This document shows positions 1,806-12,699 of a stretch of 64,000 bases of DNA, piece by piece; position 1 is the stretch's first letter, and the number at the start of each line of letters is the position of its first letter. The position numbers and the translations under genes were made by a program. The notes under the pieces are model-generated. The model ran no database searches and was not told the origin of the DNA. It saw only the letters and a program-made list of their open reading frames with translations. This DNA comes from a virus: positions 1 to 64,000 of IMG/VR virus record IMGVR_UViG_3300021371_000009; one strand, written 5' to 3'.

Positions 1806-1828
1806 GCGTTTTTTCATGAATATTTGTA

Positions 1829-2500
1829 TCATCTCTTCATAATAGTTACATAGTATCTGAAATCATCATAACGAGATATTTTTGATGAAACTGTAGCGTA
1901 AGGTATTGATGATGAACCATCTGCAAAATTTTCAAACTTTCTAATACCACCTGCAACATGTGCAGTTATATCTGCATTATATAATTTCTTTAGACCATGT
2001 ACTCCCTGTAAAATTTCAATGTAATTATTATATTCATTTTCGTCTGTTGAGTTTTGAATTATACACAAGATACCATCATCTGCTAATGCTTGCGATAGTC
2101 TAAGCAACAAAGCACTCTTATTATCATACTGGTCAAATGCATCAATAGAGAAAATTAGATTTGCATCTCTCCGCTTAGACAATATAAAGTCTTTGTAAAA
2201 AGAGATACCAGAATGTCTAATCTTACATGCTTCAAGCATGTTTTGGTCATTATTATATCCAATACACTTTTTAAAATTATATTCGCCTTTCAGACATGCT
2301 AGACCGTATCCAAGACCACAGTTAATATCCATCGCTGTGATTTCAGTATGATTTTGCAGATAGTCTTTGATGAAGTAACGATATGTTTGATATGCATATT
2401 TTTCAATGCCACACAACTCATCATAATCTTTTTGACCCCAATCTTCGAATTCGACTGGTACGTTACTAAAGATGTTTTTTGAATACGAATATCGGTTCAT
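1829..2500 (-). CDS. class I SAM-dependent methyltransferase-like protein
   Basis: Motif I-like MDINCGLGYG, LIFSIDAF and LADDGILCI (L-x-P-G-G-like) segments. Confidence 0.7.
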   Translation of the reverse strand: MNRYSYSKNIFSNVPVEFEDWGQKDYDELCGIEKYAYQTYRYFIKDYLQNHTEITAMDINCGLGYGLACLKGEYNFKKCIGYNNDQNMLEACKIRHSGISFYKDFILSKRRDANLIFSIDAFDQYDNKSALLLRLSQALADDGILCIIQNSTDENEYNNYIEILQGVHGLKKLYNADITAHVAGGIRKFENFADGSSSIPYATVSSKISRYDDFRYYVTIMKR

Positions 2501-4025
2501 ACTTTAACCAGATGCCGTTGACTTTACAAAAGTTTTTCGCCCGCGGTTTACCTGTCTCCTCATCAACTCTATTACCACCTGGCATCTGTGCTAGTGCCAT
2601 CTTTAATGTGGTCACATACTCAAATCCAAGTTCTTCACAGATACGAATACTATCACCTTCTAAAGGTAGCATCTCATTACCGAACTTTGCATCTGCAATA
2701 TTCCAGAGTAAGTATCTGTCGTTCTTTAAGTATTTATATGCGTTAGTAAGTGTAGGTCTAAGAAACCCTTCTACCCACGCTTCATACTGGTCGAACTTCT
2801 TGTACGATTGTTCTTCGTCCTCGCTATACGCCTCTTTCGCAAAATAAGGCGGCGAGGTGAAGACCATATCGATACTCTCTTCTTCACATTCAAAGACTTC
2901 TGACCCACATTGGTGAATTTCGTATGTGTTTGTATGTGGGAATAGACCTGTTGCTCTGTAAGTTTTCTCATTGAAAAACCTTGCAAGTTCAGCATACTTT
3001 GTGCTTTTGGTACCGTCTTCTGTAATGACAGTATGGTCGGTATTAGGGTCAGTCCCAATATAGTGTATATTGCGGTCATCAGAGACAGACATAGCACCAA
3101 GAATACGACCGCCCCAACCAGCAGAGGGATCCCAAATACGAATAGTAGACTGGTCTTTAAAATGCTCAGTATATTTTTCATAGAGATATTTAGCAGTAAG
3201 AGGCGGAAAGTTTACTGCGTATTGACACCAAGAGATACGAAAAGGTTTGAACCCCAAAGGAAAGATTTTTTGACCTTTCTTGAACAGCATAATCTGATAA
3301 ACATCATATTCGTCTTTCATATTGACTTTGCATTTGTCAGGTATGTCTAGTTGTTCAATTTCTTCTCTAGTAACTTGCGCCCACGCGACATCTCTTAGTT
3401 TGTCATCATAACCCGTATAGTCTTGTTCTTTGTCTGGTTTCAACCAATAATCATGTGTGTCATATTGACGACCATTACGCTCAAACCAATCAATAAAAGA
3501 CCTGCCGCTAGAAACTGTGTGCCGTAAGGTCCCAAATTCAACCAACCCTTCTTGCTTAATAGGATTGCTATAATGATAGAAAGAATCCCGCTTAAAGTGA
3601 CGATGCCCATATGTATATACTTTCTGAAATAAATCTTCATCTACGAAATGGTCATAGATAGATTTTGCTTTGCTGATATCGTTGTAAACAATCTTTGTTT
3701 TCATCATTGTAGGAAACCACTGATTAGCGGCATTACCTATAACTGATGTATTACGAATAACATCTCGCTCACCTGTCTCTTCGTTAAAGCATTCAAACTC
3801 ATGAACAGGAAAACTAGACATCTTATTGAACTGGTCAATAATATCAGTTTCACTCCAACCAACTCTTGGAGGCAGACCTAGTTCATCCCATGAGTATACT
3901 ACTTCTTTTCGCATATCATGCAACCATTGACGAAATTCATCGTCTGTCATCCATAGAACTTCTTCGAATGTCTTGTTTACTTCATGTTCTAGTAGATAAC
4001 TATTTCTTTCATAAAAATGCTTCAT
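2466..4025 (-). CDS. DNA amino-methyltransferase (N4-C/N6-A type)
   Basis: WDPSAGWGGR (motif I), YIGTDPN, catalytic FTSPPYF (motif IV), long N-terminal region. Confidence 0.8.
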   Translation of the reverse strand: MKHFYERNSYLLEHEVNKTFEEVLWMTDDEFRQWLHDMRKEVVYSWDELGLPPRVGWSETDIIDQFNKMSSFPVHEFECFNEETGERDVIRNTSVIGNAANQWFPTMMKTKIVYNDISKAKSIYDHFVDEDLFQKVYTYGHRHFKRDSFYHYSNPIKQEGLVEFGTLRHTVSSGRSFIDWFERNGRQYDTHDYWLKPDKEQDYTGYDDKLRDVAWAQVTREEIEQLDIPDKCKVNMKDEYDVYQIMLFKKGQKIFPLGFKPFRISWCQYAVNFPPLTAKYLYEKYTEHFKDQSTIRIWDPSAGWGGRILGAMSVSDDRNIHYIGTDPNTDHTVITEDGTKSTKYAELARFFNEKTYRATGLFPHTNTYEIHQCGSEVFECEEESIDMVFTSPPYFAKEAYSEDEEQSYKKFDQYEAWVEGFLRPTLTNAYKYLKNDRYLLWNIADAKFGNEMLPLEGDSIRICEELGFEYVTTLKMALAQMPGGNRVDEETGKPRAKNFCKVNGIWLKYEPIFVFKKHL

Positions 4026-4249
4026 TCAATAATCTCAACATCACTTTCTGTTTCTATCACTACTCTTGCGCCGCAAGATAGAATAGGTTTTTCATTACCA
4101 CCATAACGAACTACACTGTCACCTAGTATCTTAACTGCATGACAATATGTATTTGAGCGACCTTTTTTAACAGTGATAACAGGTTCGTTTGTACCATGCT
4201 TTTTGTTCGCTCTAATCTTATGTTGGTTTACATGTATATAGGTTTTCAT
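4022..4249 (-). CDS. hypothetical phage protein
   Basis: 75-aa ORF with RBS, ATGA overlap with the downstream methyltransferase. Confidence 0.7.
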   Translation of the reverse strand: MKTYIHVNQHKIRANKKHGTNEPVITVKKGRSNTYCHAVKILGDSVVRYGGNEKPILSCGARVVIETESDVEIIE

Positions 4250-4259
4250 ATTACTCTCA

Positions 4260-4832
4260 TTATAGCATCATTGGACTGGTTTTGTCAAACACTAAATCAA
4301 AACTTTTCCATGTTAATGTCATTCGACAATTAGTTTTTACCGAGGTAGATAATCCTCGATGCGGCATTAAAGAACTAAATATCACAACTCTACCTGGAAC
4401 AAAATCAACTACACCCATTTGAGTTTCAAATCCTCTTATTCCTTCGTGTAAATAATTTACCATGTACAAAATGGTAAAGTTCTCTTGTAAATTTTTTGTT
4501 CGATGTAAACTATCAATGTGCATAGAACCGTCTAATTCATATGTTTGTCCATTGATATAAACATGTTGTTTATCTAAGTCCTTTTCTTTAACTTCAAACT
4601 TATAGTATTCTTTGATTTTATTAAAGATAAACTTTTGGTCAGGACAATCTAATATATGTGTATAATCATTCAGTCTTTTACTGCACCAAAATATTGCATC
4701 ATCTGGATTGTTTGATACATTACCATAATAAAATAAATTATCATGATATTTTGTTGCTACTCTTGCTACAAACTCATCATCAAACAAATTATCGACATAA
4801 TCTAATCTCTTTATCATGCCGCCACGTTCCAA
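4260..4832 (-). CDS. 2OG-Fe(II) oxygenase
   Basis: YINGQ...MHID (HxD), FVPGRVVIF...PHRG...R.TLTWK; true start may be MIKRLD at about 4814. Confidence 0.8.
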   Translation of the reverse strand: MERGGMIKRLDYVDNLFDDEFVARVATKYHDNLFYYGNVSNNPDDAIFWCSKRLNDYTHILDCPDQKFIFNKIKEYYKFEVKEKDLDKQHVYINGQTYELDGSMHIDSLHRTKNLQENFTILYMVNYLHEGIRGFETQMGVVDFVPGRVVIFSSLMPHRGLSTSVKTNCRMTLTWKSFDLVFDKTSPMML

Positions 4833-5581
4833 AACAAATTAAGTTTATTTCTATCCATATTTTCTTGTATCACTTTCCATGCTTTTGCATCATATTCAGG
4901 AGCAGACGGAAATGGTGGTGCTTCTGATTGCTTCACTGGTTTGTCATATTTATATGCAGTTTCATGTAAGATAGCACGACCAATCTGACGGTCATCCATC
5001 TTATGACCCGTCTGTATCACATGAACTTCGGACTCTGGGAATGCAAGTTGCAACCCTCGGTTTATCGTTCCTGATGACCCTACTGTCCAGATTACTTCTG
5101 GCGCTACATCTAGCGACTGCGCTACTTTCACTATACTTCCTAGCACCCAATCGTGTTCTAGTCCTAAGGGCAATGTCCTGCGGGTTTGAGGACTCTCTCT
5201 GCGGTATCGCTCTGCTCTTGACAGAGTGACATTTAGCATTCCCATCTTCACCCATTCAATACGACCTCCATACTCCATGTATTTCTGTTGATGCCATGTT
5301 GGTTCTTTTCTATCTGCCCAAAAGCAAGTTGCTTTTTTTCCATACTTCTGACAAACATATGCTAGTGAGATTGGACCCCAACCTACTTTGTTTGAACCAC
5401 CGAACACCCACTCTTCGCAATCGGTATCCCGTATGAGTTTGTCGATGAACCGCACTTTTGAACCTGCAGGTAGTAGGTCATCCCGAACCACGATAACATC
5501 ATCATGATTGCAAAGAACAGGCGCATCGTAAGGGTCTTCCCAATCACTCACTAACTCTAAATAATCTTCTGCATTTATCAT
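4814..5581 (-). CDS. fold-type II PLP-dependent enzyme (ACC deaminase / D-cysteine desulfhydrase-like)
   Basis: VRDDLLPAGSKVR with PLP lysine, GSSGT phosphate loop, YDAKAW. Confidence 0.8.
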   Translation of the reverse strand: MINAEDYLELVSDWEDPYDAPVLCNHDDVIVVRDDLLPAGSKVRFIDKLIRDTDCEEWVFGGSNKVGWGPISLAYVCQKYGKKATCFWADRKEPTWHQQKYMEYGGRIEWVKMGMLNVTLSRAERYRRESPQTRRTLPLGLEHDWVLGSIVKVAQSLDVAPEVIWTVGSSGTINRGLQLAFPESEVHVIQTGHKMDDRQIGRAILHETAYKYDKPVKQSEAPPFPSAPEYDAKAWKVIQENMDRNKLNLFWNVAA

Positions 5582-6686
5582 TTGCTTCTATATCCACCAC
5601 TAAATGTATTCTTGTTTCATCACCATTGTTAATCGCCATATGTGGTTTGCGAATATCTAGATACCACAACTCACCTTCTTTCATATTAACAACATGCTTC
5701 TGCCCATGCATATCCCATGAAGTAAATTCCATATTTGGATTTGTAATCACTGGAATATGTAGTCTCATAATCTTACCATCTGCAACACCAAGATAAGGGT
5801 CAACTTGGTCTGTGTGTCTTTGCAGTTCACCACCACCTGGAGCGAGTGACATAAATCTTATTCGCTCAATATTGTCAGTAGGTATCTTTGAGAGTATCTC
5901 ATTGACATACGGAAACTGCTCACGCAAAGGTGTGTCTTCACACTCCCACTCTTCCCATGTGTCGTTTTCTGCTTTCCATTTCTTGCTCATCTCAACAGGT
6001 TTTGCAATAAATGATGCATCTGGTCTATATCCTCTCAGCGATATTGCTGACCAAGCACCTTTTTTATTGTAATTTGAGTAATGATTAGTATACTCAAGTG
6101 TCAATTTTTCTAGTTCGGTGCGTATAATCGATGTTTCGATAGTGTCAAACATGCATTTACTTATAGAAACCGTCTCAGCGCCGTCTATAGGCGGATGAGA
6201 GCGATCCTCGAATGAAGTGCTAGAATTACGAAAGAATACGCTATATATCTCTGCAAACGTAGTTATTTTGCTACCAACATAGTCGAATCCTGCTTCTTTA
6301 GCAAACTCAACTGCTTTTGCATCTTCTGACCACACAAACAACCAACAGTTTCTATCTGAATAGTGATTGATGTAGTTCTTTACGTTTTCTGTATATGCAG
6401 ATATATTTTGAATTACAACATCACCTGGTTCTTTATAACCAATAATAGTCTCACCGTGCATTGTAATCTTTGACTTAACTTTTGCTTCCGTGATATTAAT
6501 CCATGCATCACCCGCTTTGCGTAGAGAACCTTTGTCTAAGAAGTCTGCTACATTATTCTTTTTAAACTGTGCAAAAGGACTATCAGTGTATGAATTATAA
6601 TGGTCATACTCTGCAGTAATTTCTTTTAGGTAATCTAACTGATAACCTTTCTGCCAATCTTTCATTTCTACTTCTGTTTGTGTCAT
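5544..6686 (-). CDS. GNAT-like domain fused to Asp/Asn beta-hydroxylase-like 2OG-Fe(II) cupin
   Basis: N-terminal WLFVWSEDAKAVEFAKEAGFDYVG (GNAT C-terminal motif); C-terminal RFMSLAPGGGELQRHTD, RLHIPVITNP, KPHMAINNGDETRIHLVVD. Confidence 0.75.
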   Translation of the reverse strand: MTQTEVEMKDWQKGYQLDYLKEITAEYDHYNSYTDSPFAQFKKNNVADFLDKGSLRKAGDAWINITEAKVKSKITMHGETIIGYKEPGDVVIQNISAYTENVKNYINHYSDRNCWLFVWSEDAKAVEFAKEAGFDYVGSKITTFAEIYSVFFRNSSTSFEDRSHPPIDGAETVSISKCMFDTIETSIIRTELEKLTLEYTNHYSNYNKKGAWSAISLRGYRPDASFIAKPVEMSKKWKAENDTWEEWECEDTPLREQFPYVNEILSKIPTDNIERIRFMSLAPGGGELQRHTDQVDPYLGVADGKIMRLHIPVITNPNMEFTSWDMHGQKHVVNMKEGELWYLDIRKPHMAINNGDETRIHLVVDIEANDKCRRLFRVSE

Positions 6687-7279
6687 ATGTCTGACCTTTC
6701 TTCTACACTATTAAATAAATTTTCTTCAATGGCAAAACTAACTGAACATCTTGGTCCAGAAATAATAGGGCAATGTCTCCACCCTTTTGGAATAAATATC
6801 ATGTCATTAGGTTCTAGTATAAACTCCTCTATTACATCATCTTCTTCAGGTCCTTGCTGAACCTTCCAAGGTGTATTACCTTGAATTTGCCATATGTATG
6901 TATTCATATCATCCATATGAAAATTAAGTCCATCACTTTCAGAAACAAAAGAAGCAAATAAGTGACAATTAACTCTACTAGTAGTTCTATTGATAATATG
7001 TTTCTCTTCAATAATTTTTCTTACATATGTAACCTGAGGTATCAACTCGGCGTTGTGAGTAGCAAAAGAAGGAAATATATTAGTATCATTATCAATTTCA
7101 ATTTGATTTTGAGATACTAATCTAATTGCTCTTCCAGACTTAGGAAAACCGGTGCGCCATTCTTCAGAGTTTCTATAATCAACTGATGCTTGAAAGTTAT
7201 GTACTATGTCAGACCATTCAAATCTTTCAAAAGGCATAACTCCTATTTCACCAGGTCTAGGTAAATCAACCCACCGCAT
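6683..7279 (-). CDS. JmjC/cupin-4 oxygenase (YcfD/RoxA-like)
   Basis: GLNFHMDDMNTYIWQIQGNTPWKV and LEPNDMIFIPKGWRH. Confidence 0.8.
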   Translation of the reverse strand: MRWVDLPRPGEIGVMPFERFEWSDIVHNFQASVDYRNSEEWRTGFPKSGRAIRLVSQNQIEIDNDTNIFPSFATHNAELIPQVTYVRKIIEEKHIINRTTSRVNCHLFASFVSESDGLNFHMDDMNTYIWQIQGNTPWKVQQGPEEDDVIEEFILEPNDMIFIPKGWRHCPIISGPRCSVSFAIEENLFNSVEERSDI

Positions 7280-7799
7280 CTAATTTTAACTTTCCATCTT
7301 TTACTAACTTTTTAATTTTCTTATCTCTTGCTTTGACACCTCTATCAAGCACCAACTTTGATGCTCTCTGTGTGAAATCGATGCCGAGCATATGATCCAT
7401 TTCATGTAAGAATATTCGTGCAGTCATACCTTCATATTTAAACTTCTGGTTATTACCTTTTTCATCATAATATGATACTACACAGAAAACAGGTCTACGA
7501 ATTGATAAAAACAATCCAGGCCATGTCAAACAACCTTCTTTCATTGCTTTCAGTTCAGATGACATTGTAAGTACTTGAGGGTTAAAAACATTCAAACGAA
7601 AATCATCTTGACCCATGACAAAAACTTTAGTGTTAAAACCCACTTGAGTTGCAGATAATCCTACGCCTTTATAGTGTAGCATATTATCCCACAACTGGTC
7701 AGCAAGTTCAATTGGATTCATAAATGGATTCTCAAAATCAAACTCTTCTGGTTTGTATCTTGCTTCACTTGGAGGCGTTAAATCTAAAATTTTACTCAT
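7266..7799 (-). CDS. def: peptide deformylase
   Basis: GVGLSATQVG, EGCLT and HEMDH motifs. Confidence 0.93.
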   Translation of the reverse strand: MSKILDLTPPSEARYKPEEFDFENPFMNPIELADQLWDNMLHYKGVGLSATQVGFNTKVFVMGQDDFRLNVFNPQVLTMSSELKAMKEGCLTWPGLFLSIRRPVFCVVSYYDEKGNNQKFKYEGMTARIFLHEMDHMLGIDFTQRASKLVLDRGVKARDKKIKKLVKDGKLKLDAVG

Positions 7800-10197: not shown

Positions 10198-11267
10198 ACT
10201 ACGTTATTACTCGCTTCAACATATAAACGCTTCATATCTGTCTTAATACGCTCTTTGTTTGCAGATGTATCTACTTCATCAACATATGTGTTTAGTAGTG
10301 ATAATGTATCATCTAACTGTAAGTTCTTATCATCGACAAATGTAGCATCAAAATCAGAAAAATCTTCTACTATTGTCAACTCATGAACCCCTACATTATA
10401 CAACATATCAATCACTTTGTCAAACTGTTTTGCATTGATTTTGTTGATTACTACCACCTTTACAAAATGGTCTTTATATTCACTCGCATCAAAGTTTTCA
10501 TATGACTTATCTCTATCATTATATTCTAACTTCTTAAAGATGCTGTATGGATTTTCAATGAACTCTAACTCTCTAGTCTCTGTATCAAAGATATGAAACC
10601 CACGCTTGTCACCATAGTCAGACCAAGTCATCTGATATGGATTACCTAGATATGTAATATTATCTTGAGTTGATTTGTGATGAAAGTGACCACTGAAAGC
10701 GCAATCGAATTTACCGAAAACTTTTCTATCTAATCCATGGTCAAAGTTTGTGAAACCTTTATACATTGTAAAACCTTTAACTTCTAAGTGACCCATAAGA
10801 ACTTGAGCATCAGTATTAGAAATCATCTGCATAGTTTCATCTCTATTCTCTGGACAAATCCACGGAACAAAAAGCATCTTACAACCATCAAATTCTACTT
10901 CAGTTGCTTTCTCGTAAATCCAGGGTTCGTTGTTACCATCAAATCCAGTAAACAGCGTATTCATACTATTCACTTCATTTGTGTTCTTGTAGTATGTGTC
11001 GTGATTACCAATAATTACATGAGTATCAATACCCATGCGTCCTAGTTTCCATATAAAGTCATGTCTAAACTTCTGTAGTGTTTTGAAGTTGATAAACTTA
11101 CGTCTATCTGTAATGTCACCTAGATGAATACATGTGGTAATATTGTTTTCTTCTAAGTATGGAAAAAATGTATTATCATAAAATTTAAAGAAGTAATCGT
11201 TAAATACTTCACTGTCATTTCTGGCACCAAAATGTGTGTCAGTTATTAATGCTATTTTCATATTCAT
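10194..11267 (-). CDS. gp47: recombination endonuclease nuclease subunit (SbcD/Mre11-like)
   Basis: DTHFG, HLGD, GNHD, GHFH metallophosphoesterase motifs. Confidence 0.97.
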   Translation of the reverse strand: MNMKIALITDTHFGARNDSEVFNDYFFKFYDNTFFPYLEENNITTCIHLGDITDRRKFINFKTLQKFRHDFIWKLGRMGIDTHVIIGNHDTYYKNTNEVNSMNTLFTGFDGNNEPWIYEKATEVEFDGCKMLFVPWICPENRDETMQMISNTDAQVLMGHLEVKGFTMYKGFTNFDHGLDRKVFGKFDCAFSGHFHHKSTQDNITYLGNPYQMTWSDYGDKRGFHIFDTETRELEFIENPYSIFKKLEYNDRDKSYENFDASEYKDHFVKVVVINKINAKQFDKVIDMLYNVGVHELTIVEDFSDFDATFVDDKNLQLDDTLSLLNTYVDEVDTSANKERIKTDMKRLYVEASNNVV

Positions 11268-12699
11268 TGTTCCATTTTGTAATCAAATCTTTGTGTAACA
11301 AAGTATCACTTCTATCGGTAAAATATTTACGTCTAGGTAGTTGTCCATGAGAGTGTATATGCTCTATCAATACTTTATTAGATAACAAACCCAAAGCATA
11401 TAATACTTGATTCCAGTTGTGTGAACCAAATATTCTATTTTGCGTTGCAACTGCTCCACTTACATTTCCAACATCTTCTAATAGTAACACACGTTCTTGT
11501 GCAATGTCAATATATTTTTTCACTTCTACCGGTAAATGTGAATTTTTAACATCTTTCCAAAAATCAGTATCAGCAATACAATTGACATAATGTAGTCTAA
11601 CGAATGCAAAAACTTGTTCAAACAAATCTTGTACGATAGTATTATAAGTTTCTTTAGACTTGGTACCTGAGTTAATGTATGTTGATAGTAATTTTGCTTG
11701 CTGTATACCAACACCTATTGCTGTTGCTTCTAAAGGTTCATAAAAGTGTGATGACAGACCAATTAGTACTGTATTTCCAACCCAAGTCTGACTATAATTA
11801 CCTGCCTCAAACTTAAATGTTTTTCCAACTTTAGGTTCGAACCCTAATTTTTCGGTAACTTCTTTTACTGCATCTTCATAAGATATGTGCTTGGAACTGT
11901 ATGCATATCCATTTCCCATACGTTCTGATGTAGGTATACGCCACATCCATCCAGAACTCATTTTATGTGCTTGTGTGTGAATTGGATAATTGTCAGGTTC
12001 TTCATGAGGACATTGAAAAGCAAATGCACTATCTACAAACATATCATTTTGTCTAGATTTAAATTTAAAACCATCAACTTCAGATGCGATAATTCTTCTA
12101 AAACCACTAGCATCTACAAAAATATCTGCTTCATAAATCGCTGTAGCACTCTCAATAGATTTACAATTATCAGTTTCATCAATATTGACTTTTACAATCT
12201 TATCATCATAAAAACCAACACCGACTTCTTTCATTAGTTTTTGTAAAAATTTATTTAATTTTTGAGTATCAAAGTGAAATTGATTTGGTAGTTCATCCAT
12301 TTCTCTAGCACAGTTTTCTAACTGCCATGGATTTATTAAATCTAATGGATCGCAATTACTACTCATATTTAAGTACATATGAAGTTCACTATCACCAGCA
12401 TCTTCATCTGTAGTTAATGAATGAATATATCTCTTGTCAGTCCATCCTCTAAAGTCAACACCGAACTTAAATGTACAACCGCTTTGCTGTACAAATTCCT
12501 TAACAGGTATCGCCATCAATTCTCTAAAGTAGTTCACATGTTCTGTACTACTTTCTCCAACGCCAACAATACCTATTTCAGAAGAACCTACGACATACAC
12601 ATCTAGTCCAGGTTTCTCTTTCTTTAATATCAACGCGGCCATTAGTCCAGCATTACCCGCACCTAATACACAAACACGTTTTCTATTCCATGAATTCAT
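11239..12699 (-). CDS. flavin-dependent (tryptophan) halogenase family protein
   Basis: GAGNAG, IGIVGVGES, TFKFG (catalytic Lys position), WMWRIP, FYEPLEAT. Confidence 0.88.
   Translation of the reverse strand: MNSWNRKRVCVLGAGNAGLMAALILKKEKPGLDVYVVGSSEIGIVGVGESSTEHVNYFRELMAIPVKEFVQQSGCTFKFGVDFRGWTDKRYIHSLTTDEDAGDSELHMYLNMSSNCDPLDLINPWQLENCAREMDELPNQFHFDTQKLNKFLQKLMKEVGVGFYDDKIVKVNIDETDNCKSIESATAIYEADIFVDASGFRRIIASEVDGFKFKSRQNDMFVDSAFAFQCPHEEPDNYPIHTQAHKMSSGWMWRIPTSERMGNGYAYSSKHISYEDAVKEVTEKLGFEPKVGKTFKFEAGNYSQTWVGNTVLIGLSSHFYEPLEATAIGVGIQQAKLLSTYINSGTKSKETYNTIVQDLFEQVFAFVRLHYVNCIADTDFWKDVKNSHLPVEVKKYIDIAQERVLLLEDVGNVSGAVATQNRIFGSHNWNQVLYALGLLSNKVLIEHIHSHGQLPRRKYFTDRSDTLLHKDLITKWNNEYENSINN

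Follow-up and report, generated by a model that had tools for sequence, protein, structure and literature searches.

A methyltransferase-fold enzyme coupled to a pyridoxal-phosphate enzyme and a GNAT-AspH fusion in T4-like phages: a candidate module for a base mark larger than methyl

Described base modifications and the locus

To our knowledge, all characterised phage hypermodifications begin with a modified nucleotide precursor (5-hydroxymethyldeoxyuridine, 5-hmdU; 5-hydroxymethyldeoxycytidine, 5-hmdC; or preQ0), with C5-methylation together with TET, or with Mom. Here we describe a three-gene module, lying within a cluster of seven genes in the IMG/VR virus record IMGVR_UViG_3300021371_000009, that would follow a different route. 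The window, by which we mean the whole stretch of 64,000 nucleotides that was analysed, covers the first 64 kb of a fragment 74.4 kb long (approximately 41% complete) that comes from an uncultured oceanic T4-like phage, the closest cultured relatives of which are pelagimyophage-type phages such as HTVC008M (gp46 44% identical) and the Methylophilales phage Melnitz. A sequence-only reading of the window had proposed that seven tightly packed genes at positions 1829-7279 form a DNA hypermodification operon. We confirmed the coordinates and the family calls for all seven genes (g1 to g7), and we assign three of them to the core of the module:

g6, 2466-4025, minus strand: 519-residue methyltransferase-fold enzyme with an SPPY motif; core
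g3, 4814-5581, minus strand: 255-residue fold-type-II enzyme dependent on pyridoxal 5'-phosphate (PLP); core
g2, 5544-6686, minus strand: 380-residue fusion of a GNAT-fold domain with an AspH-type 2-oxoglutarate (2OG)/Fe(II) hydroxylase; core

Because a methylase, a PLP enzyme and a GNAT/hydroxylase of these types are welded into one protein elsewhere, we propose that the module probably builds an undescribed base mark that is larger than a methyl group.

The closest described systems are the thymidine hypermodification pathways of phages M6, ViI and PaMx11 (PMC8989533, PMC5889632). These pathways share with the module a homologous PLP enzyme (M6 gp52 family) whose catalytic lysine aligns with that of g3 and, if our proposal is correct, a common logic, in which a base within polymeric DNA bears a group with an amine and a carboxylate and this group is decarboxylated. 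M6 gp52 and ViI gp226 decarboxylate amino acid-base conjugates within DNA and can form the Schiff base only with a free alpha-amine (PMC8989533). Tailoring by an acetyltransferase also has a precedent in PaMx11. Unlike in those pathways, no deoxyuridine monophosphate hydroxymethylase, 5-hmdU DNA kinase, amino acid:DNA transferase or radical S-adenosylmethionine (SAM) isomerase was found here. The absence of the kinase and of the transferase, already remarked upon in the sequence-only reading, held up in tblastn searches of this contig and four related contigs (25-70% complete), where M6 gp54 (the 5-hmdU DNA kinase) had no match below E 0.5 and M6 gp51 (the amino acid:DNA transferase, aGPT-Pplase2) had none at E <= 1; this contig and the four relatives also held no homologue of the M6-type radical SAM enzyme. 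Further differences are the use of a methyltransferase fold, aimed in our proposal at an exocyclic amine rather than at thymine C5, and the addition of 2OG hydroxylases.

The Mom protein of phage Mu offers a second likeness, as a GNAT fold that places an amine-containing group on the exocyclic amine of a DNA base. Unlike Mom, the GNAT domain of g2 lacks the cofactor loop, and the Mom family (PF25680) had no match in this contig, in three relatives or in HTVC008M. The orphan phage methyltransferases of PF01555 resemble g6 in having an SPPY motif IV and a motif I, and g6 exceeds the Pfam cut-off, although it matches only half of the model. It departs from them in its 265-residue N-terminal domain, in having motif I before motif IV, and in its obligatory company of, and fusion with, PLP or GNAT partners. 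Outside DNA, the wybutosine pathway of transfer RNA (tRNA) uses TYW2, an aminocarboxypropyl (acp) transferase of class I methyltransferase fold that takes this group from SAM, after which the JmjC hydroxylase TYW5 acts on the side chain and the SAM-dependent carboxyl methyltransferase TYW4 on its carboxylate. These enzyme classes match g6, g1/g2 and g7 by mechanistic analogy only; the wybutosine substrate is RNA, the pathway has no PLP step, and no sequence relationship between g6 and TYW2 was shown.

Fusions and co-occurrence of the core genes

The functional coupling of the methyltransferase, the PLP enzyme and the GNAT-AspH fusion is supported, at the level of sequence, by triple fusions in which g6, g2 and g3 homologues are joined in single chains of 1084-1191 residues. 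In a search for fusions of the g3 domain we found 57 longer proteins that contain it, at least 50 of them joining it to a methylase. The first family of fusions (approximately 680-1191 residues) carries PF01555, with or without PF05118, plus PF00291, in the order methylase, GNAT-AspH, PLP. As examples, we point to P0011 (1191 residues) and P0014 (1148 residues; WP_281721641.1, Nitrosomonas nitrosa), both of which contain homologues of full-length g6, g2 and g3 in succession; other members of this family are methylase-PLP fusions of approximately 680 residues. A search of genome contigs returned no relatives of P0014, and a search of viral contigs returned none of P0011.

A second family, unrelated to the first, includes gp7 of Erythrobacter phage ZS04 and ORF1 of vB_EliS-R6L (approximately 810 residues). 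In this family (L082:2326-4764, P0020-P0055), an N6_N4 methylase is interrupted between its motifs I and IV by the PLP domain, and a ParB domain is also found in one member. Motif IV of the second family reads CPPY (FSCPPY), not D/N/SPPY. In the paper on R6L, ORF1 is taken for a simple CcrM-like methylase (PMC5463345). Microcystis phage Mae-JY30 encodes the methylase and the PLP enzyme in overlapping genes.

Relatives of g6 are encoded on 250 IMG/VR stretches. To assess co-occurrence we used 61 loci, namely 60 from IMG/VR and the window's own, in which the entire interval from gp46 to the methylase gene was present. A PLP gene was found in 35 of these loci and a GNAT-AspH fusion in 30; 28 loci had both, 7 had the PLP gene only, 2 had the fusion only and 24 had neither (Fisher p 1e-8 over the 61 loci, with kinship not corrected). 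An intact GNAT of a stand-alone family, f13, was present in 24 of the 61 loci, frequently alongside a short AspH; no locus combined it with a PLP gene, and either partner lies upstream of the methylase. Only two loci had neither PLP nor f13, and one amine-acting partner was therefore kept in 59 of 61. When placed on a quick tree of the methylase, the PLP/GNAT state required at least 4-6 changes.

Because of the fusions and the co-occurrence, we take the unit to be g6, g3 and g2, and the other four genes to be interchangeable neighbours. The seven-gene hypermodification unit of the sequence-only reading thus stands for g6, g2 and g3 and falls away for g1, g4, g5 and g7, which are found in 6-9 of the 61 loci or only in the nearest relatives. 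The same reading had suggested a survey for co-occurrence of the methyltransferase, PLP and GNAT-AspH genes and for its correlation with a k-mer footprint; the co-occurrence was found, whereas the correlation with the footprint failed in HTVC008M, as described below. The mutual exclusion of PLP and GNAT and their repeated switching on the tree are additions of the present analysis, as are the structural support for the GNAT-AspH fusion, a second phage lineage with a conserved g5, and the separation of module and footprint in this genome.

Core enzymes, proposed chemistry and rival explanations

On sequence grounds, the methyltransferase fold of g6 is the only candidate for the enzyme that attaches a group to the base. 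It was the sole match of N6_N4, C5 or Dam type in five related contigs, in agreement with the earlier suggestion that the DNA-acting enzyme has an amino-methyltransferase fold. In Pfam, g6 matches N6_N4_Mtase (PF01555) at 32 bits (cut-off 26.7; E 1.6e-7) over profile positions 1-106 of 221. Motif I (DPSAGWGGR, residues 299-307) lies upstream of motif IV (SPPY, residues 391-394), and the topology is therefore permuted relative to PF01555. SPPY is invariant in 81 of 81 g6 relatives and in every fusion of the first family, and D299, G303 and G306 are invariant too. Residues 1-265 form an N-terminal domain without a recognisable relative, for which the ESM Atlas returned only unnamed viral clusters (at most 0.82). 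The AlphaFold2 (AF2) model of g6 has a mean predicted local distance difference test score (pLDDT) of 93.2; Foldseek matched it to generic class I methyltransferases (TM score 0.25), and a phmmer search against the PDB returned 2zie alone (E 0.064). A complex prediction for g6 with g3 scored 0.00, which speaks neither for nor against binding.

The PLP enzyme g3 belongs to phrog_7093, labelled 'threonine dehydratase' (E 2e-35), a family that includes M6 gp52. By BLASTP, g3 and gp52 align end to end at 24% identity (E 3e-13), with K36 of gp52 opposite K42, the predicted Schiff-base lysine of g3. The proposal that the PLP enzyme is of a DNA-tailoring type was thereby strengthened, as g3 is a true homologue of the M6 decarboxylase. 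The phosphate loop of g3 is GSSGT at residues 169-173, and K42, S170 and G171 do not vary among 29 sequences. On the PALP model (PF00291; cut-off 35 bits), g3 of the window is sub-threshold at 19.4 bits, whereas its homologues in ZS04 gp7 (40.1) and Mae-JY30 (46.3) pass. A profile of the g3 family found nothing at E <= 0.01 among PDB sequences.

Both halves of g2 are supported by structure. The C-terminal domain (approximately residues 166-376) matches Asp_Arg_Hydrox (PF05118; E 1.4e-16, 61.2 bits with a cut-off of 22.6), and its iron ligands H291, D293 and H349 and its 2OG arginine R359 are invariant in 28 sequences. In an AF2 model of g2 (pLDDT 92.5), this domain is closest to AspH (Z 16.2) and to free proline and pipecolate hydroxylases (Z 15.8-15.9), while the GNAT-fold domain (approximately residues 16-157) matches 2pc1 (Z 11.1, 138 residues aligned) and 2fia (Z 10.3). 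The N-terminal 160 or so residues also align with family f13 (hhalign probability 89%, E 2e-6), itself an intact small GNAT that scores 21.4 bits on Acetyltransf_1 (cut-off 20.7).

We propose that g6, g3 and g2 are one enzyme system that would transfer to an exocyclic amine a group that derives from SAM and itself bears an amine, and would then tailor that group, a reading that we regard as evenly poised between right and wrong. From the observed gene content, homologies, fusions and co-occurrence, we infer DNA as the substrate, the nature of the transferred group and the order of steps as follows. After replication, g6 would bind SAM and attach to the exocyclic amine of a base a SAM-derived group bearing a primary amine, most simply the 3-amino-3-carboxypropyl part of SAM. 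g3 would then form a Schiff base with this amine and decarboxylate the group, as gp52 does on glycinyl-thymine, and the AspH domain of g2 would hydroxylate the side chain. In sister phages, the intact small GNAT that takes the place of the PLP enzyme would instead acetylate the amine. The products of g1, g4, g5 and g7 would be lineage-specific extras, which may tailor the group further or be unrelated.

An amine-bearing group is the simplest idea because a methyl group offers neither the PLP enzyme nor the GNAT a substrate, whereas an aminocarboxypropyl group does. We suggest more tentatively that g6 may be the first DNA aminocarboxypropyl transferase, acting on N4 of cytosine or N6 of adenine, with the PLP enzyme converting the group to aminopropyl, or the GNAT acetylating it, and AspH hydroxylating it. 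In the literature we found nothing relevant on aminocarboxypropyl DNA, on hypermodification by a PLP enzyme with a methyltransferase, or describing this module.

An alternative that we consider rather doubtful is that g6 is an ordinary amino-methyltransferase, making N4-methylcytosine (m4C) or N6-methyladenine (m6A) as an anti-restriction measure, and that the PLP, GNAT and AspH proteins help indirectly, for example by acting on SAM, S-adenosylhomocysteine or a small molecule. The fusions would then reflect metabolic channelling rather than the tailoring of a DNA adduct. The SPPY motif and N6_N4_Mtase signature of g6 would be expected of such an enzyme, the methylase is constant while its partners vary, and the annotations of stand-alone homologues of the g6 catalytic domain from phages of Vibrio, Bacteroides and Staphylococcus read N4-cytosine or DNA methylase. 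However, neither a fold-II PLP enzyme nor a GNAT has a known role in supporting methyl transfer, and a plain N-methyl group is a substrate for neither, yet an amine-acting partner is retained in all but two of the 61 loci. The second fusion family, moreover, has its PLP domain inside the methylase fold, and, of the homologues of g3 that have been tested, the closest uses DNA itself as its substrate (PMC8989533).

Less probable again, and in our view unlikely, is that the module acts on RNA or protein of the translation apparatus (tRNA, ribosomal RNA, a ribosomal protein or a release factor) and not on DNA, which would fit its peptide deformylase (PDF) neighbour. The best structural matches of g6 are the tRNA m2G methyltransferases Trm11 (Z 16.9) and Trm14/TrmN (Z 15.4-15.7), with PrmC and METTL5 within 3 Z units, but the Z scores are nearly tied among class I methyltransferases, and g6 showed no recognisable RNA-binding domain, THUMP included. 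JmjC_2, the family of g1, is one of ribosomal oxygenases, f13 is weakly like RimI, and acp groups and their hydroxylation are known on RNA only; against these points, the fusions of the second family are ParB-linked, DNA-type N6_N4 methylases. The tested relatives of g3 also act on DNA (PMC8989533). The PDF gene adjoins the module in 54 of the 61 loci, but it is also a core gene of pelagimyophages that lack the module (PMC7029224), so the adjacency may be positional only.

Finally, we consider it very unlikely that the PLP, AspH and GNAT-like parts act first on SAM, turning it into a modified donor (decarboxylated or hydroxylated, for example) from which g6 then transfers, in the manner of CmoA/CmoB and carboxy-SAM, although the fusions fit a donor-first order equally well, class I folds do use SAM analogues or decarboxylated SAM (CmoB, spermidine synthase), and hydroxylase relatives of g2 act on free amino acids. 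The same methylase is kept in loci without a PLP gene, and the tested g3 homologues act on a DNA-bound group, not on a free donor (PMC8989533).

Several points nevertheless weigh against our preferred reading of g6, g3 and g2 as a system that places and tailors an amine-bearing group on DNA. The SPPY motif is classically that of enzymes that simply methylate N4 of cytosine. Because the nearest solved folds of g6 are the tRNA m2G enzymes, with PrmC and METTL5 near, its substrate could be RNA or protein, and the frequent PDF neighbour points the same way. The acetyl-CoA loop is missing from the GNAT domain of g2, where the alignment has a 7-residue gap opposite the QGxGNA (QGSGNA) of f13. Orthologous methylases with 60% identity are paired with a GNAT instead of a PLP enzyme. 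Lastly, the sole independent sign of DNA modification in this phage, a GG/CC footprint, is equally present in HTVC008M, which is free of the module.

Footprint, neighbouring genes and implications

The footprint consists of short sites that are preceded by G or followed by C. In this contig the rule holds for GATC at 45 of 45 sites, for GANTC at 73 of 75 and for GCWGC at 2 of 2, while control palindromes have a flank of this GG/CC type at approximately 30% of sites. AGCT and AGCC/GGCT are absent altogether from the 74.4 kb, where approximately 250 and 140 sites, respectively, would be expected; 12 GGCC sites remain, and neither GGGCC nor GGCCC is among them. The six-letter palindromes AACGTT, CTTAAG, GCATGC, TACGTA and TGCGCA are also absent from the contig, and relatives purge other sets (CGCG, ACGT, GCGC, TCGA). 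One relative with only a GNAT and the methylase obeys the same flank rule at 13 of 13 GATC sites. In the related contig of L044 (L085-L087; short AspH, GNAT and methylase only), all 111 GTAC sites are GGTAC or GTACC. GTAC is barely depleted there (111 sites against 166 expected) and GGWCC is over-represented 5.3-fold, and it looks as if sites in that contig have been converted to the protected form, not removed.

HTVC008M (a Pelagibacter phage; NC_020484, complete genome) follows the rule as well, at 83 of 83 GATC, 43 of 43 GANTC, 41 of 51 CCGG and 47 of 59 GCGC sites. By tblastn it has no homologue of g6, g2, g3, g1 or g7, our hidden Markov models of four families had no match in it at E <= 1, and its complete genome contains no PF01555, Mom or TGT match. 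Because HTVC008M has the footprint without g6, g2, g3 or any N6_N4 methylase, the footprint gives no target for the module. The sequence-only reading was thus right that a CC/GG footprint exists; its use as a predicted target of g6 we rejected. The footprint is a trait separate from the module, and since HTVC008M is cultured and obeys the rule without the module, GG/CC-directed protection exists in a phage that can be grown. The other explanation offered for the footprint, a DpdA (7-deazaguanine) pathway elsewhere in the genome, was not supported: no TGT-family gene (PF01702, DpdA) was found in this contig, in nine related contigs or in complete HTVC008M, in searches whose controls were positive.

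The remaining genes of the cluster, its upstream neighbour and one predicted promoter are as follows:

g1, 6683-7279, minus strand: 198-residue JmjC-type cupin oxygenase (JmjC_2, E 4.7e-11)
g4, 4260-4832, minus strand: 190-residue 2OG/Fe(II) oxygenase; variable neighbour
g5, 4022-4249, minus strand: 75-residue conserved protein (phrog_8676, E 5.6e-21)
g7, 1829-2500, minus strand: 223-residue class I SAM methyltransferase; variable neighbour
PDF, 7266-7799, minus strand: peptide deformylase (Pep_deformylase, E 1.2e-31); upstream neighbour, not counted in the module
Promoter, 4259-4288, minus strand: sigma-70 consensus, TTGACA, 18 nucleotides, TG-TATAAT; 12 of 12 matches

Reading along the minus strand, the order is gp55 (late sigma factor), a tryptophan-halogenase-like flavoprotein, gp47, gp46, two small open reading frames, PDF, g1 to g7 and a CobT-like 'peptidase'; genes for the major capsid protein, the portal and UvsW lie further along the contig. 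The junctions between g1 and g7 are overlaps of 4, 38, 19, 4 and 35 nucleotides and one gap of 10 nucleotides. The tight packing implied by the word 'operon' was therefore upheld, but the genes may form more than one operon, because the perfect sigma-70 promoter lies inside the cluster, within the end of g4, and ends 10 nucleotides ahead of the g5 start codon. Promoter-like sites in the region are no more numerous in total than expected by chance, and we note only the perfect match, as a prediction. A second perfect TTGACA/TATAAT promoter is found at 10395-10423 (minus strand), within gp47 and ahead of gp46. Two intragenic copies of the late-promoter motif TATAAATA in the region are uninformative. 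The flavoprotein between gp55 and gp47 (11239-12699, minus strand) belongs to the tryptophan-halogenase family (E 2.5e-86), and HTVC008M also has a member of that family, adjoining its terminase.

JmjC (g1) is found in 8, g4 in 9 and g5 in 6 of the 61 related loci, and g7 is restricted to the nearest relatives. g4 has no Pfam match, but the 2OG-oxygenase signature HxD...H...R is invariant in its alignment (H105-x-D107, H158, R170). It belongs to phrog_274 (E 1.5e-16), a family labelled 'DNA endonuclease V'; we rejected a denV-like endonuclease, because that label comes from the annotation of HTVC008M and g4 has the 2OG triad. g7 has weak matches to Methyltransf_23/31/11, and its best NCBIfam matches, also weak and far under the cut-off, are carboxyl O-methyltransferases (Tam, E 7e-7; BioC). 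A stretch of 195 nucleotides in g7 (2218-2412) is 78.5% identical in DNA to an 82-residue hypothetical gene of phage Melnitz that adjoins a PKHD-type hydroxylase, the sole nucleotide-level match of the cluster to a cultured phage. In contig L002, whose methylase is 99-100% identical, 468 extra bases (L002:10200-10667) stand right after the g7 stop codon (window 1827-1829), and they make up most of a 169-residue 2OG-Fe(II) oxygenase gene that is missing from the window.

A second T4-like lineage (L104-L146) has, in the same place, PDF, a g5-like gene, a PLP gene, a protein of approximately 340 residues and a shorter SPPY methylase. Its 75-residue g5-like protein, encoded directly upstream of the PLP gene, is 68-81% identical to g5 and thus far better conserved than the PLP enzyme (approximately 45%) or the methylase (approximately 33%). 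The 340-residue protein has a weak glycosyltransferase-like match (E 0.009).

The phage itself was detected in marine, marsh and freshwater metagenomes from at least 12 studies. Contigs from RNA libraries, which are short, match parts of all of g1 to g7 without differences; this is a weak hint of expression, and DNA carry-over is possible.

The module is widespread, in that the g6-type methylase family comprises 3797 representative clusters (E <= 1e-3), and a bench test is possible now because the sister fusion is present in Erythrobacter and Microcystis phages that are in culture. The separation of module and footprint leaves a second DNA-protection trait in pelagimyophage-like phages, one that can be studied in HTVC008M. 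If our proposal is true, the module would represent a new post-replicative route, led by an amino-methyltransferase and tailored by PLP, GNAT and 2OG enzymes, and probably a new chemical class of DNA base. If g6 is an aminocarboxypropyl transferase, these phages would possess a family of cationic, interchangeable DNA hypermodifications that are made without a modified nucleotide precursor.

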